A DNA stretch of 64,000 nt from Candidatus Dormiibacterota bacterium (GTDB taxonomy: Bacteria; Eisenbacteria; RBG-16-71-46; SZUA-252): assembly GCA_035635575.1 (NCBI GenBank), contig DASQAV010000002.1:1539-65538 (forward strand). Direction: 5' to 3'. Shown one piece after another: positions 27,376 to 36,767 of this stretch. Both the position numbers and the translations under genes were made by a program. Position 1 is the first letter of the stretch. Every line of letters starts with the position of its first letter. The notes beneath the pieces are model-generated. The model was not told the origin of the DNA and made no database searches. It saw only the letters and a list, made by a program, of their open reading frames with translations.

Positions 27376-28179
27376 ATGAATCCAAATCCGCCGATCAAGA
27401 GCCAGCGCAGCATGACAGCACTTCTCGCGGGCGGCGCGATCCTCGTATGCGCCTCCGTCCTGGGATGCGCCGCCGACTCGGAGCTCAAGCGATACGACCC
27501 CTCCCTGAACGAGATCGACCTCCGCCAGGGAAAGATCGCGGACATGGGCGTGGTGAAATTCCAGGAGCCCGATCAGATTCGCCCGCCGCTCATCGCCACC
27601 CTGGAGCGAACCTTCCGCGAGGAGCGTCCGGATCTGACCGTGCTCCCGGCCGACAGCGTGCGGCACCTCCTCGGCGGCGAGCGCTACCGGAAGCTCATGC
27701 TCGGCTACGAATACCAGGGCACCCTCGACGGCCCGGCCCTGAGCGAGATCTCCGATTCGCTGCGTGGGGCGGCGCGCTTCCTTCTTCTCGCCCGCGTCGT
27801 GAAGGACCGCACCCGGAGCTCGGCCCGCGGCATGGCCCAGGGCGATACCGGATTGTCCTCGGCCTCCTATGCCATGGGGATCACGGGGCGCGATGCGCAG
27901 GTGGTCATCCATCTCTACGATCTTTCGAGGAGGAGCCTGGCAGTGACCGCGAGACTCGACGGCTCGAGCGAGAACTCGAGGCCCGTGCTCTCGCCGATCC
28001 GCCCTGGCTCCAGCGGGACGGTGGAGCTGGGGAGGGTCGTGCCTCCGGAGGAGACCGGGTACCCCGCCTCCCCCGAGCTGGCCCAGGCGGTCGAGGACCC
28101 GTTCCGCACGTTCGCGAAGACGCTGCCCGGCACTCCCTTGCCGGCCGGCGCCCCCCAGCCGGTGCCTGCTCGGCGCTAG
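27376..28179 (+). CDS. lipoprotein, hypothetical
   Basis: Lipobox VLGC after a hydrophobic signal. No known domain recognised. An alternative ATG lies at 27412. Confidence 0.5.
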   Translation: MNPNPPIKSQRSMTALLAGGAILVCASVLGCAADSELKRYDPSLNEIDLRQGKIADMGVVKFQEPDQIRPPLIATLERTFREERPDLTVLPADSVRHLLGGERYRKLMLGYEYQGTLDGPALSEISDSLRGAARFLLLARVVKDRTRSSARGMAQGDTGLSSASYAMGITGRDAQVVIHLYDLSRRSLAVTARLDGSSENSRPVLSPIRPGSSGTVELGRVVPPEETGYPASPELAQAVEDPFRTFAKTLPGTPLPAGAPQPVPARR

Positions 28180-29036
28180 TCCGCGCTCACCTTCTTCAGC
28201 TCGGCCACCAGCACCCCGGACAGGATCGCGGCGCTTCCCAGCACTTCCCATCCCGACATGTGAGCGCCGAAGAAGCCCATCGCGAAGAGTGACGCGAACA
28301 CCGGCTCCAGCGAATAGATCACTCCCGCGCGCACCGGCTTCGTCTTTCCCAGCGCCCAGGTCTGGAGCACGAGAATCAGCGCGGTCGCGATGACGCCGAG
28401 ATAGAGGAGCGTCCCCCACGCTTCGGTGGGCACCGAGAGCTTCCCGCGGGCCGCGACGAAGATCCATCCCATGGCGCCCGAGACCAGGGCCTGCATCGCC
28501 GAGACGGCAAAGGGATCGCTCCGCCGCGCGGCCACGTTCGTGTACACCACTTGGCACGCGAAGAAGACCGCGCCGGCCAGCGTCCAGAGGTCCCCCGCAT
28601 GCAGGCTGAGCCCCGCGTCCGCGTAGAAGATCAGGAGCCCCACGAACACCAGCGCCACCCCGAGAATCTCTCCGAGCCGCACGCGCGATCGCTGCACCAG
28701 GAACGCGATGAACGGCATGAACACGACCGCGGTTCCGGTGAGAAACGCCGAGCGCGGCACGCTGATCGTCGTGAGCCCGATCGCCTGCGTGAGATAGCCC
28801 CCGACGAGAAAGAGTCCCGTGCGGATTCCATCCCAGAGATCCTGACGTCCCATCCGCGCGAGCCGGCGCCGGTAGATCAGGCAGAGCACCAGCGCCGCGA
28901 TGGAGAAGCGCACCGCCACGATCGTGTACGCGTCGACCCGGTGGAGGATGACGCTGAGGAGCGGAAAGGTCGTTCCCCAGATCGCCGTGATGAGGAGGAG
29001 CGTGCCCTCGGCGACCCGGCTCGAATCCCTCCTCAA
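28176..29036 (-). CDS. EamA/DMT family transporter
   Basis: Ten hydrophobic TM segments in two EamA repeats. TTG start overlaps the rex stop. Confidence 0.75.
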   Translation of the reverse strand: MRRDSSRVAEGTLLLITAIWGTTFPLLSVILHRVDAYTIVAVRFSIAALVLCLIYRRRLARMGRQDLWDGIRTGLFLVGGYLTQAIGLTTISVPRSAFLTGTAVVFMPFIAFLVQRSRVRLGEILGVALVFVGLLIFYADAGLSLHAGDLWTLAGAVFFACQVVYTNVAARRSDPFAVSAMQALVSGAMGWIFVAARGKLSVPTEAWGTLLYLGVIATALILVLQTWALGKTKPVRAGVIYSLEPVFASLFAMGFFGAHMSGWEVLGSAAILSGVLVAELKKVSAD

Positions 29037-29686
29037 CGGCGCGGGCGCCGCGTGGGCCGTGCGGTCAAGGCCTTGATCGAGAAGGAGAGGCTCTCCAGCT
29101 CCACCGCCAGGTTCACGTTCCGGAGCGCCACTTGCGGCGGAATGAAGAGCTTCCGGTGGGCGAAGTTCAGGATTCCGCGCATTCCCGCCATCACCATGCG
29201 GTCGGCCACGGCCTGGGCCGCGCGCGCGGGCACGGCGATGACCCCGATCTCGAGCCCCAGCCGCTCCGTCTCCTCTTGCAGCGCGTCCACGTGGAGGATC
29301 TGGAGGTCACGCCACTTCTGGTGGATCCGCTCGGGGCTCACGTCGAACACCGCGGCGAAGTCGAATCCCTGGCGGCGAAATTCCTTGTAGGAGAAGAGGG
29401 CCGAGCCGATGTTCCCCGCGCCCACCAGGGCCACTCTCCAGCGGCGGTTCAGCCCCAGGATGAGGCGGATCTCTTTCTTGAGGCGCGCGACCAGATACCC
29501 CAGGCCGCGCTTGCCGAAATTGCCGAAGTAGGAGAGGTCCTTCCGAACCTGCGCGGAGGTGACTCCGCTCAGGTGGGCCAGGCCCTGCGAGGAGACGGTG
29601 CGAACGCCTTCCAGCTCCAGATCCTCGAGAACCCGGTAGTAATCGGAGAGACGCCGGACCGTCGAGGTGGAGATCCGAGGATCCAG
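29033..29686 (-). CDS. rex: redox-sensing transcriptional repressor Rex (proposed CTG start fused to gyrA stop)
   Basis: The winged-helix N-domain (ISTSTVRRLSDYYRVLEDL…SYFGNFGKRGLGY) and Rossmann GAGNIG domain lie in one open frame running back to the gyrA TAG. No ATG/GTG/TTG exists upstream of 29434. CTG at 29686-29684 lies 5 nt after GAGGAGGAG. The track lists only the C-terminal 133 aa. Confidence 0.65.
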   Translation of the reverse strand: MDPRISTSTVRRLSDYYRVLEDLELEGVRTVSSQGLAHLSGVTSAQVRKDLSYFGNFGKRGLGYLVARLKKEIRLILGLNRRWRVALVGAGNIGSALFSYKEFRRQGFDFAAVFDVSPERIHQKWRDLQILHVDALQEETERLGLEIGVIAVPARAAQAVADRMVMAGMRGILNFAHRKLFIPPQVALRNVNLAVELESLSFSIKALTARPTRRPRR

Positions 29687-32125
29687 CTACTCCTCCTCGC
29701 CCTCGTCCTTCTCCTCGACCTTGGCGACGTCGATCAGCTGGTCGCCCGCTTCCAGGTTGATGAGCCGGACGCCCTGGGTATTCCGGCCGATCTCGGAGAT
29801 TTCCGAGACCTTGGTGCGGATCACGATCCCGCCTCGGGTGATGAGCATCACCTGGTCGTTGGATACGACTTCGAGGGCCGCGACCACGCGCCCATTCCGC
29901 TCGGTGGCCTGGATCGAGATGATCCCCTTCCCGCCGCGTCCGGTGATCCGGTACTCGGAGATGGGAGAGCGCTTGCCGTATCCGTTCTCGGTGGCGACCA
30001 GGAGCGAGGCCTCGCGCTTCACCGCGATCATGCCGACCACCGCGTCGTCCTCTTCCAGGGTCACGCCGCGAACGCCGTAGGCCGTGCGCCCCATGGGACG
30101 GACGTCCCCTTCGTTGAAGCGGATCGCCTTGCCGTTCCGCTTCTGCAAGATGATGTCCTGGGTCCCGTCGGTGAGGACCGCGTCGATGAGCGAGTCGTCA
30201 CCGTCCACGCCGATCGCGACGATGCCGCCCCGGCGCGGATTGGAATAGGCGGAGAGCGGCGTCTTCTTCGCGGTGCCGTTCTTCGTGACCATCATGATGA
30301 AATGCGTGTCGTCGAATTCCTTCACGGGCAGCACGGACGCCACGCGCTCCTGCTGCGACATCTCGACCATGTTCACGATCGCCTTCCCCTTGGCGGTCCG
30401 GCCGCCCTGGGGCACCTCGTGCACCTTGAGCCAGTACACGCGACCGCGGTCCGTGAAGACGAGAATGTAGCTGTGGGTCGAGGCGATGAAGAGATGCTCG
30501 ATGAAATCCTCTTCGCGCGTGCCCGCGCCCGTGACGCCGCGGCCGCCGCGCCGCTGGCTCCGGTACGTGGTGACCGGGAGCCGCTTGATGTAGCCCGCGT
30601 GGGAGATGGTGATGACCATGTCCTCTTCGGCGATCAGGTCCTCCGCCTCGAACTCTCCCGAGCCCGCGACGATCTCCGTGCGGCGATCGTCGCCGAAGCG
30701 CTCCCGCACCTGGACCAGCTCCTCCTTGATGATCTGGAGCACCTTGGCCGGCGAGGCGAGGATCGCCTTGAGGCTCTCGATGAGCTGGATCACCTCGAGG
30801 TACTCGTCCTCCACCTTCTTCCGCTCGAGGCCGGTGAGCCGCGAGAGGCGCATCTCGAGGATCGCGCTCGCCTGGATCTCGCTCAGGCCGAAGCGGCTCA
30901 TGAGCCCGGTGCGCGCGGATTCGGTGTCTGCGGCCGCGCGGATGAGCTTCACGATCTCGTCGATGTGGTCCAGGGCGATCTTCAGCCCTTCGAGGATGTG
31001 GGCGCGCTTCTCCGCCTCGGCCAGGTCGAACTTGGTGCGCCGGACCACGACCTCCTGGCGGTGGCCGATGTAGTGCTGGATCATCTCCTTCAGCGTGAGC
31101 GTGAGCGGGCGGTTGCCGACGAGCGCCAGCATGTTCGCGCCGAAGGTGGTCTGCATCTGGGTATGCTTGAAGAGCTGGTTCAGGACGACCTTGGGCTGCG
31201 CGTCGCGCTTCAGCTCGATCACGATTCGCATCCCATCGCGGTCGGATTCGTCGCGGAGGTCGGAGATCCCGTCCAGCGGCCCGTCCTTCACGAGATCGGC
31301 GATCTTCTCGAGGAGCGCGGCCTTGCTCACCATGTAGGGAATCTCGGTTACGATGATCGCCTGGCGGTCCTTCCGGATCTCCTCGACCTCGGTCTTCGAG
31401 CGAACGGTGATGTGCCCGCGCCCGGTGCGGTAGCAGTCCGTGATTCCCTGGCGCCCGTAGATGATTCCCCCCGTGGGGAAATCGGGGCCGGTCACGAGGC
31501 TTAGAAGCTCGTCCGCCTCGCACTGGGGGTTGTCGATGACGTGATGGATGGCGTCCACGATCTCGCGCAGGTTGTGGGGCGGGACGTTGGTGGCCATGCC
31601 GACCGCGATCCCGGCCGAGCCGTTCACGAGGAGGTTCGGAACCGCCGCGGGGAGCACGACCGGCTCCTCGCGCGACTCGTCGTAGTTCGGGCGCATGTCG
31701 ACCGTGTCGCGCTCGATGTCGCGGAGCATCTCCTCCGCGAACTCGGTCAGCCGCGCCTCGGTGTAGCGCTCCGCCGCGGGGGCGTCGCCGTCCACCGAGC
31801 CGAAGTTCCCCTGACCGTCCACGAGCGGATACCGCATCGAGAAGGTCTGCGCCATGCGCACCATCGTCTCGTAGACCGCCACGGTGCCATGCGGATGATA
31901 GTTTCCCGTCACGTCGCCGGTGATCTTCGCCGATTTCCGGAAGGGGCGGTCGTGGAGGAGATTCAGCTCCCGCATCGCCACGAGAACGCGGCGGTGCACG
32001 GGCTTCAACCCGTCACGGACGTCCGGCAGGGCGCGCGAGACGATGACCGACATCGAATAGTCGATGTAGGAGTTCCGCATCTCATCTTCGATGTAGATCG
32101 GAACTTCTCTATCGCGCGTTGCCAT
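29687..32125 (-). CDS. gyrA: DNA gyrase subunit A
   Basis: Full-length GyrA (…AAMRYTEARL…), six C-terminal beta-pinwheel repeats, acidic tail EEKDEGEEE. Confidence 0.95.
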
Positions 32126-32175
32126 CGATCAAAGGCTCCTTGGTTGAGATCGCCGCCGCACGAGCGGCGTGAATG

Positions 32176-35599
<3,424 letters not shown>

Positions 35600-35609
35600 G
35601 CGTTCCGGG

Positions 35610-36767
35610 TCAGCTCGCCAGGCGAAGGGGCATCACGAGACAGAGAAGATCCTCTTTCGAGGCGCTCCCCTTGTCCGTTTGCGCGGTGGGCGCGATGAGT
35701 CCGGCCGTCACCGGCGTGTTGAGACGAATGTCGACTTCTTCGCTGTCGATCGTACGAAGAATGTCGAGCAGGTAGGCCGCGTTGTACCCGATGTCGAGGT
35801 CGTCCGAGCCGTACTGCGCGTCGAGCTCCTCGGTCGCGTCTCCCTGGTCGGGCGTCTGAACCATCAGGGTGAGGCGATTGGGGCGCAGCGAGAGTTTCAC
35901 CTGGCGCGTGAGGCTGTCGGAGAACACTGAAACGCGCTCCAGCGCCTGGGCCAGATCTTCCCGTTTCACCCTTAGATGCTTGTTGTTCTGCTTGGGAAGC
36001 ACCTGTTCGTAGTTCGGAAACGGCCCTTCGATCAACTTCGTCGTGAGCGTGGTGTCGCCGATCGTGAAGCGGGCGTGATTCTTTGAAATTCCAATGCTCA
36101 CGGGCCCCGCGGCCAGGGCCAGCAGCCGCTGCAGCTGATTCAAGGCCTTGAGGGGCACGATGACGTCCCCCTTGGGTGGCGTGGGAATCCCTCCCGTGGG
36201 CGTACACGATGCCTTGGAGAGCCGGTGCCCATCCGTCGCCACCACGCGCAGCTCCCCGTCACGCACCTGGAACAACGCGCCGTTCAGGGCCGGCCGCGTC
36301 TCATCCGTCGAGACCGAATAGATCGTGCGGCGGATCAGACGCTCGAGCAGATCCGGCTCGAGCGAGATCTCGGAATCCGCTTCCACCTTGGGAAGCGCCG
36401 GAAATTCCTCCGGACGGATGCAGAGAAACTTGTAGCGGCCGCTTTTGCTCCCCACGTTCAGCGTGAGGTCCTTCGCTTCGATCTTGAGCTCCTCTTTTGG
36501 AAGCTTTCGCACGAGCTCGAAGAGCTTCTTTGCGGGGACGGTCAGCGTTCCTGAATCTTTGACGTTCGCGCGTGCCTTCGTCGCGATCGCGAGGTCCAGA
36601 TCGGTCGCCCGCATCTCCACCTTGTCCTCGGAAGCCTCTAGGAAAATGTTCGAGAGGACGGGTAGTGTCGTTCGGCTTGGAACCGCGCTCGAAACCACCT
36701 GCAAAGCGTCGAGAAATTCGCTCTGCGCAATCGAGAACTTCATGGCCACTTCCTGTGCTGTGATCAT
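35610..36767 (-). CDS. dnaN: DNA polymerase III beta sliding clamp
   Basis: Three-domain clamp (MKFSIAQSEFLDALQ…). The second ATG at 36743 with a GGAAG Shine-Dalgarno is the more likely start. Confidence 0.9.
   Translation of the reverse strand: MITAQEVAMKFSIAQSEFLDALQVVSSAVPSRTTLPVLSNIFLEASEDKVEMRATDLDLAIATKARANVKDSGTLTVPAKKLFELVRKLPKEELKIEAKDLTLNVGSKSGRYKFLCIRPEEFPALPKVEADSEISLEPDLLERLIRRTIYSVSTDETRPALNGALFQVRDGELRVVATDGHRLSKASCTPTGGIPTPPKGDVIVPLKALNQLQRLLALAAGPVSIGISKNHARFTIGDTTLTTKLIEGPFPNYEQVLPKQNNKHLRVKREDLAQALERVSVFSDSLTRQVKLSLRPNRLTLMVQTPDQGDATEELDAQYGSDDLDIGYNAAYLLDILRTIDSEEVDIRLNTPVTAGLIAPTAQTDKGSASKEDLLCLVMPLRLAS

Follow-up and report, generated by a model that had tools for sequence, protein, structure and literature searches.

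We describe a rex gene in a 64-kb stretch of DNA (contig DASQAV010000002.1, 64,000 nucleotides, called the window below and numbered from its first letter). The gene follows the stop codon of gyrA directly and has no canonical start codon ahead of its DNA-binding domain. Rex is a redox-responsive transcriptional repressor, and a protein search assigned this one to Candidatus Eisenbacteria. The gene is in all likelihood complete and functional, with translation starting at a CUG codon (29686-29684) beside the gyrA UAG, aided by an extended Shine-Dalgarno (SD) sequence and probably by reinitiation. For the position of the start taken by itself our confidence is higher still: the comparison with relatives points very strongly to this CUG.

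The gyrA-rex junction

In this soil Eisenbacteria genome gyrA is read from the minus strand (32125..29687, 812 amino acids) and its 3' end is ...GGC GAG GAG GAG TAG. The TAG (29689-29687) is followed in the same frame by CTG GAT CCT CGG ATC TCC ACC TCG ACG GTC CGG CGT CTC, which is translated as LDPRISTSTVRRLSDYYRVLEDL... and runs on into Rex. The features of the locus used in this work are listed here with their coordinates.

29687..32125, minus strand: gyrA coding sequence including the TAG, from the list of open reading frames (ORFs), with Pfam matches to DNA_topoisoIV and six DNA_gyraseA_C repeats and with a short acidic tail
29692..29698, minus strand: GAGGAGG, an extended SD-like heptamer formed by the penultimate Glu-Glu codons of gyrA and the first G of its last codon, ending 5 nucleotides (nt) before the CTG
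29684..29686, minus strand: CTG, the proposed rex initiation codon, adjoining the gyrA TAG and conserved as NTG (N, any base) in relatives
29675..29683, minus strand: rex codons 2-4, GAT CCT CGG (Asp-Pro-Arg), between the CTG and the competing ATC
29672..29674, minus strand: ATC (Ile5), the sole other near-cognate candidate start and the first residue matched by the Pfam domain
29033..29686, minus strand: full-length rex coding sequence, 217 codons and TGA, supported by NCBIfam Rex models and Rex structures
29531..29674, minus strand: winged-helix DNA-binding domain (PF06971, residues 5-52), wholly upstream of the first canonical start
29159..29446, minus strand: Rossmann-type NAD(H)-binding domain (Pfam CoA_binding, residues 81-176) with GAGNIG, from the Pfam match and the translation
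29432..29434, minus strand: GTG, the first in-frame canonical start (codon 85), used by gene callers unless they take GTG 29425, giving a product of 133 or 130 residues
28176..29036, minus strand: gene for an EamA-family transporter, whose TTG start (29036-29034) overlaps the rex TGA (TTGA, 4 nt)

A first-pass annotation, made from the letters of the window, had claimed that no ATG, GTG or TTG occurs in frame before GTG 29434 and that CTG is the codon next to the gyrA TAG. A codon scan of 29800-29400 agrees: the first in-frame canonical start after the TAG is codon 85 and the 84 preceding codons hold none, while the only in-frame near-cognate codons ahead of the winged-helix domain are CTG 29686 and ATC 29674. 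No ATG, GTG or TTG is found in the other two frames of this interval, so a simple insertion or deletion error would supply no start. It also holds that a start at 29434 would delete the whole DNA-binding domain, as the winged helix lies entirely upstream. The spacing of 5 nt between SD and CTG that had been given is correct for the heptamer GAGGAGG (29698-29692), but not for the 9-mer GAGGAGGAG to which it had been attached; this ends 3 nt before the CTG, with only the TAG in between.

A screen of the whole window for long stretches with high GC content at third codon positions (GC3) ahead of the first canonical start gave rex (GC3 0.83) as the sole genuine ORF. The other high-GC3 stretches of this kind were shadow frames of real genes and were discarded. 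Only rex stands out, so CTG initiation is no general habit visible in the window.

Rex counted from the CTG

Counted from the CTG, the protein matches Put_DNA-bind_N (PF06971) at residues 5-52 (E = 1.8e-18; 66.7 bits against a cut-off of 27) and CoA_binding at residues 81-176 (E = 8.7e-21), with the GxGxxG motif present as GAGNIG. The NCBIfam model NF003995 (Rex) scores 255.9 bits (cut-off 126) and the equivalog model NF003993 scores 250 bits (cut-off 217); residues 4-206 align to positions 5-207 of these profiles. The Rex structures of Thermus aquaticus and T. thermophilus (1xcb, 3ikt) match with E around 1e-50, residues 6-204 of the query corresponding to 4/5-201 of the chain. This end-to-end agreement with models and structures means that Rex from the CTG has exactly the normal length. 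By all sequence-level features that define the family, the protein is an ordinary Rex.

Conservation of the start position

Junctions were collected from one genome per species (49 loci) and from metagenome contigs (80 loci), which gave 132 usable junctions, 106 of them unique. Relatives whose Rex is at least 74% identical make up the fused clade, and rex adjoins gyrA in every one of them. We classified 92 unique sequences of this clade by start codon and by its distance from the gyrA stop, and placed 91 of them on a neighbour-joining tree. The classes were as follows.

CTG, 0 nt from the gyrA stop: 51 unique sequences
CTG, 1 nt from the gyrA stop: 16 unique sequences
CTG, 4 nt from the gyrA stop, with two extra N-terminal codons: 14 unique sequences
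CTG, 3 nt from the gyrA stop: 1 unique sequence
CTG, upstream end missing: 1 unique sequence
TTG, 0 nt from the gyrA stop (two more lack upstream sequence): 8 unique sequences
ATG, 58 nt from the gyrA stop: 1 unique sequence

On the tree the homologous codon is CTG in 82 sequences, TTG in 8 and ATG in 1, and the basal relative L119 carries GTG there, 2 nt past a TGA stop. Of two complete Eisenbacteria chromosomes, OY969801.1 is of the CTG type and OZ244990.1 of the ATG type. All four NTG codons are therefore present at this position in the fused clade and L119, and no other codon is. The first-pass annotation had proposed an alignment of relatives as a test of whether the CTG is conserved, which it is. 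It had also named relatives with a canonical start at this position as evidence against a CTG start. This point was ill-posed, since TTG, ATG and GTG at exactly this codon mark it as the start position.

By Fitch parsimony on the 91-sequence tree, the first base of the start codon has changed three times (among C, T and A, always leaving NTG), the second base never and the third base never. As a control we took the third bases of 38 fully conserved four- and sixfold degenerate codon columns, which change 16.5 times on average (median 17, minimum 1, maximum 28). At eight of the ten other conserved leucine columns of rex the preferred codon is CTC, yet CTC, CTT and CTA never appear at the start position. 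The pairwise number of substitutions per synonymous site (dS) between the window and the other CTG-bearing lineages is about 0.5-1.3. The bases flanking the CTG vary freely in the classes with a 1-nt or a 4-nt spacer, and the spacer classes interconvert on the tree. The start position is thus constrained to NTG beyond what synonymous drift would leave, as judged from these alignments.

The basal relatives L103 and L119 have a shorter N-terminus, (M)-L-R-I. Their junctions read TAA ctc CTG CTT CGC ATT (L103, about 945-966) and TGA cg GTG CTC CGG ATT (L119, about 1480-1500), and the alternative homologous start is again NTG.

The Shine-Dalgarno sequence

Each of the 82 CTG sequences on the tree has a perfect GAGGAGG within the final codons of gyrA, 5-9 nt ahead of the start. 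Counted over all CTG assignments it was found for 83 of 84, the lone exception probably being L119, which is truly GTG-started. The heptamer is absent from all eight TTG sequences and from the single ATG sequence. The two independent TTG lineages have the weaker GGAGAGG, GGAGAAG or GGGGAGG and the ATG sequence has no SD at all, which is suggestive of an inverse relation between the strength of the start codon and that of the SD. The penultimate Glu-Glu of GyrA is always encoded by GAG GAG in the CTG sequences, while GAA makes up 19% of the Glu codons in the 3' region of gyrA; the last gyrA codon, which supplies the final G of the heptamer, may encode Glu, Ala or Val.

Within the window the pattern GAGGAGG-N5-CTG occurs once, against 0.38 expected, and at least once in 28 of 100 shuffles. 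This is within chance, and the significance of the pattern therefore rests on the comparison with relatives.

Across the window, with 34122 (gyrB), 32125 (gyrA) and 58269 as examples, the likely starts of most long ORFs are not preceded by a recognisable or strong SD; gyrB (AGGAGG), gyrA (AGGAG), rex (GAGGAGG) and a few others have one. It appears that this lineage makes little use of SDs and keeps strong ones for a few genes.

Alternative explanations

We considered four other accounts of the junction. According to the first, which we regard as improbable, translation would start at the Ile codon ATC 29674-29672 read as formylmethionine (fMet); Rex would be four residues shorter, and CTG and Asp-Pro-Arg would be an untranslated spacer. 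ATC is a permitted near-cognate start and the Pfam domain match begins at Ile5. In addition, NCBI starts the Rex of the relative L033 (P0023, 'MPTSTV') at the equivalent ATC, and P0019 (MPASTV), read by eye, seems to start at the equivalent ATT of L030, though an exact-match search did not place P0019 on that locus. The Rex fold, however, conserves this Ile, and Ile has no codons other than ATH (H, A, C or T), so that its conservation is uninformative about use as a start. The residues ahead of it are more telling. Asp, Pro and Arg are conserved in 90%, 79% and 98% of the sequences, with a third-base entropy of 0.99, 1.85 and 1.13 bits; codons kept as amino acids while their wobble bases are free have the signature of translated codons. 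An ATC start would also leave the invariant NTG 3-6 codons upstream unexplained, and it would place the SD 17 nt away here and 27 nt away in the class with a 4-nt spacer, where 5-10 nt is the usual range.

A second account takes the CTG as merely the first sense codon after a leaky stop, with Rex made as a GyrA-Rex fusion or only when ribosomes read through the gyrA UAG, which is in frame. The two genes do share a frame, separated only by TAG, in the window and in 59 of the 92 unique relatives. Against this, 30 of the 92 have rex shifted to the +1 frame with respect to gyrA by a spacer of 1 or 4 nt, and these keep the CTG, the SD and the N-terminus. As the CTG is kept while its distance and frame relative to the gyrA stop vary, a read-through fusion is excluded as the general route. 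Moreover, the gyrA stop is TAG, TGA or TAA across relatives, so that no particular leaky stop is kept, and restriction of the following codon to NTG would not be expected. Folding of the junction RNA, searched for structures that might sequester the SD or act as stimulatory or recoding elements, gave nothing beyond shuffled controls (z = 0.10). We regard this account as very unlikely.

Slightly less likely again is that translation from GTG 29434 or GTG 29425 yields the C-terminal Rossmann domain alone, and that the winged-helix part is a decaying remnant or pseudogene. This is how the locus is annotated on four contigs that carry it in identical form (L001-L004), where the gene tables give Rex as a fragment of 133 or 130 residues with the CoA_binding domain only, and many database entries of relatives are similarly shortened. 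The frame upstream of the GTG is nevertheless intact in more than 90 unique sequences. Compared with 11 relatives, the segment from Ile5 to codon 80 has a ratio of nonsynonymous to synonymous substitutions (dN/dS) of 0.04-0.18 at dS of about 0.5-1.3, its GC3 is 0.83 and the full winged-helix domain of Pfam is matched with the E-value given above. These values show that the segment is translated and selected, which excludes a truncated protein or a pseudogene; the frame from the CTG onward is under purifying selection. Furthermore, the internal starts picked by gene callers differ between relatives and are thus incidental codons.

Finally, a sequencing or assembly error that removed a canonical start, for instance an ATG or TTG misread as CTG, has next to no probability, although the window comes from a metagenome-type assembly and a single C/T or C/A difference would restore the TTG or ATG found in relatives: an identical GyrA protein and identical junction DNA recur on four metagenome contigs assembled independently of one another, from three JGI soil samples (those behind Ga0137394, Ga0137397 and Ga0209388) and one ENA assembly, and dozens of samples and genomes contribute the 82 unique sequences with CTG, among them the complete 3.1-Mb chromosome record OY969801.1. 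We therefore reject this account.

A CUG-initiated Rex, as first proposed from the window, is then the account that fits the NTG-only position, the frame-independent CTG, the conservation of codons 2-4, the SD and the low dN/dS together.

Several points weigh against this account or limit it. It concerns an uncultured lineage and rests on sequence. Many of the 82 CTG sequences are mutually related, and the association of CTG with GAGGAGG, and of TTG with a weaker SD, represents only two or three independent evolutionary events. The choice of ATC by the NCBI pipeline in L033 is an ambiguity for automated methods, and Ile5, being necessarily ATH and itself near-cognate, may serve as a minor start. 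Translational coupling of rex to gyrA is plausible from the geometry alone. Lastly, the yield of Rex from a CUG may be very low: in the E. coli reporter work of Hecht et al. (2017), CUG reportedly initiates at only about 0.1-1% of the AUG level.

Operon context and history

The genes recF-dciA-gyrB-gyrA-rex-eamA form a tightly packed row on the same strand. There are 4-nt overlaps at recF/dciA and at dciA/gyrB, a gap of 50 nt between gyrB and gyrA, 0 nt between gyrA and rex, and the TTGA overlap between rex and eamA. At this last overlap (29033-29036, minus strand) the TTG start of the EamA-family gene is not preceded by an SD.

Consensus scans of 27900-36500 predicted no sigma-70-like promoter and no coding-strand terminator, which is weak evidence, as promoters of other types are outside the coverage of such scans. 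An Rfam scan of the window gave no known RNA family. The operator TTGTGAA-N4-TTCACAA was absent from the 64-kb window at up to three mismatches, only weak matches with four mismatches being present, and no Rex-box-like site was found in the loci of the fused clade. The targets of this Rex may be located elsewhere than in the window. By comparison, palindromes resembling the Rex operator (2-3 mismatches) lie 40-116 nt upstream of rex in the outgroups L036, L041/L130 and L050. These sites are at 2959-2976 of L036 and 2973-2990 of L050; L041/L130 have two, one 116 nt ahead of the Ile codon of rex and the other 1165 nt beyond it. The relatives that bear these palindromes are distant Eisenbacteria and TA06 with a spacer of their own and a canonical start. 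The pattern suggests that autoregulation was lost when rex joined gyrA.

Distant Eisenbacteria (50-64% identity) also have gyrA upstream of rex, with a spacer of 16-172 nt and canonical rex starts, and the acidic tails of their GyrA proteins are long, vary between relatives and do not finish with GAGGAGG. In the fused clade the acidic tail of GyrA is short, about 10 residues after ...LIDVA(K/R)VEE (29690-29730 in the window; L001-L133). Such a length would fit a deletion that ran from the distal part of this tail through the spacer into the 5' region of rex. In the simplest history the promoter and operator of rex would have been lost in the deletion along with the distal tail and the spacer, after which rex would have depended on the gyrBA transcript. 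Read in this way, the locus illustrates how a regulator may lose its own promoter and operator and be absorbed into a housekeeping operon.

Proposed mechanism of initiation

Near-cognate codons can be read by the initiator tRNA in bacterial initiation. At the rex start the initiator tRNA would read the near-cognate CUG and give fMet-Asp-Pro-Arg-Ile..., the weakness of the codon being offset by the extended SD, GAGGAGG, which the Glu-Glu codons of the acidic GyrA tail provide 5 nt upstream. Ribosomes that finish gyrA would be held at the junction by pairing between the SD and the anti-SD sequence and would reinitiate 0-4 nt downstream, alongside some de novo initiation directed by the SD.

Coupling of this kind is plausible because the spacing is 0-4 nt, the SD lies inside gyrA and no promoter or terminator is predicted between the two genes. 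If the start is the CUG, we lean slightly towards a substantial share of initiation being reinitiation by gyrA-terminating ribosomes, as opposed to initiation purely by de novo SD binding. Rex would then be made as a low, fixed fraction of GyrA from a recF-dciA-gyrB-gyrA-rex-eamA transcript, and the weak codon would hold Rex at a low level compared with the gyrase subunits, which are abundant. We infer the initiation at CUG, the coupling, the co-transcription and the low level of expression from the arrangement of the locus.

A stronger version joins this mechanism with the deletion: the loss of the distal GyrA tail, spacer, promoter and operator would have left Rex purely a translational by-product of gyrA, made through an SD-UAG-CUG reinitiation device at a fixed and very low Rex:GyrA ratio. 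We consider this joint version doubtful. The output of the repressor would depend on the stringency with which initiation factor 3 (IF3) selects start codons and on the expression of gyrase, which would link redox-responsive control of transcription to DNA supercoiling. The pairing of CTG with GAGGAGG, as against TTG or ATG with a weaker SD, would be a case of natural compensatory tuning of start and SD strength.

Consequences for annotation

Nearly all public Rex entries of the clade are shortened by 17-84 residues and have lost part or all of the DNA-binding domain. P0003, P0030, P0031, P0040, P0090, P0094, P0106 and many others have 133-204 residues and begin at an incidental internal ATG, GTG or TTG. 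With entries truncated in this way, regulon predictions and domain censuses for Eisenbacteria will miss or misclassify Rex. The CTG start is not wholly unseen by the databases, as the NCBI annotation of the relative L049 (P0008) has Rex starting at the homologous CTG. The NCBI pipeline thus treats the start inconsistently, with CTG as its choice for one genome and ATC for another.

Contigs with an Eisenbacteria-type gyrA-CTG-rex arrangement (L049, L033, L010, L013 and L028) are binned in genomes labelled Hyphomicrobiales, Bacteroidota, Binatia, Acidobacteriota and Limnocylindrales. These assignments are probably binning or labelling errors in metagenome-assembled genomes.

Comparison with known systems

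A literature search for the rex gene of Eisenbacteria or its start codon found no paper describing this arrangement. A report on reinitiation at non-canonical codons (PMC4648390) was set aside, as it concerns a eukaryotic system (Xenopus oocytes).

In protein architecture the Rex studied here resembles those of Thermus aquaticus and T. thermophilus (1xcb, 3ikt, 2dt5) and of Bacillus subtilis (2vt2), with two domains, an N-terminal winged helix and an NAD(H)-binding Rossmann fold. The gene differs from the characterised rex genes, which start at canonical codons and commonly control their own expression through a TTGTGAA-N4-TTCACAA operator, whereas this rex is appended to gyrA and has no operator match nearby or elsewhere in the window.

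With respect to the start codon, the closest cases are ccpN (AUA) and cvfC1 (AUU) of Staphylococcus aureus, whose non-canonical starts are conserved, are each paired with an extended SD and in reporters work at about 10% of the AUG efficiency (PMC13009471). The S. aureus infC start (AUA) is of the same class (PMC13009471), and AUU starts are known for infC and pcnB of E. coli (cited in PMC13009471). As in ccpN, cvfC1 and infC of S. aureus, the near-cognate start of rex is conserved across relatives and a strong or extended SD would direct its selection. Like CcpN, Rex is a metabolic helix-turn-helix transcriptional repressor whose level is presumably kept low. Unlike these S. aureus and E. coli genes with AUU or AUA, rex has CUG, takes its SD from the codons of the upstream gene and would begin 0-4 nt from a stop codon, so that reinitiation is likely to contribute; also, its start is here a prediction from sequence. 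A CUG start of dnaA in Caulobacter is a negative example, not being functional in vivo (PMC8443254).

With respect to coupling, Huber et al. (2019) found that an SD located inside the upstream gene is often important for termination-reinitiation and that, in several groups, it counts for more there than in de novo initiation (PMC6728339); termination-reinitiation coupling has been reviewed (PMC12548453). The gyrA-rex pair has the properties of the gene pairs of Huber et al.: the genes are co-directional, stop and start are 0-4 nt apart, the SD is intragenic in the upstream gene and the lineage rarely uses strong SDs for its other genes, like the groups in which the SD has the greater weight in reinitiation. 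It differs from the described reinitiation pairs, which restart at AUG, GUG or UUG (as in ATGA or TGATG), in that the restart codon would be CUG, and the coupling is here deduced from geometry.

The arrangement thus belongs to two known kinds, conserved near-cognate starts and termination-reinitiation coupling, and is no new kind of mechanism. Naturally conserved CUG starts are rare in bacteria, and the signature at rex is unusually clean, because the position is NTG-only over about one synonymous substitution per site, is independent of the upstream frame and co-occurs perfectly with an SD encoded within GyrA. It is a good natural test case for the rescue of weak start codons by SD strength and termination-reinitiation, and its junction is small (about 40 nt). 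What is unusual, compared with the systems above, is the combination: a CUG codon, apparently used as a restart codon right after a stop, with its SD written in the sequence that codes for the GyrA tail.

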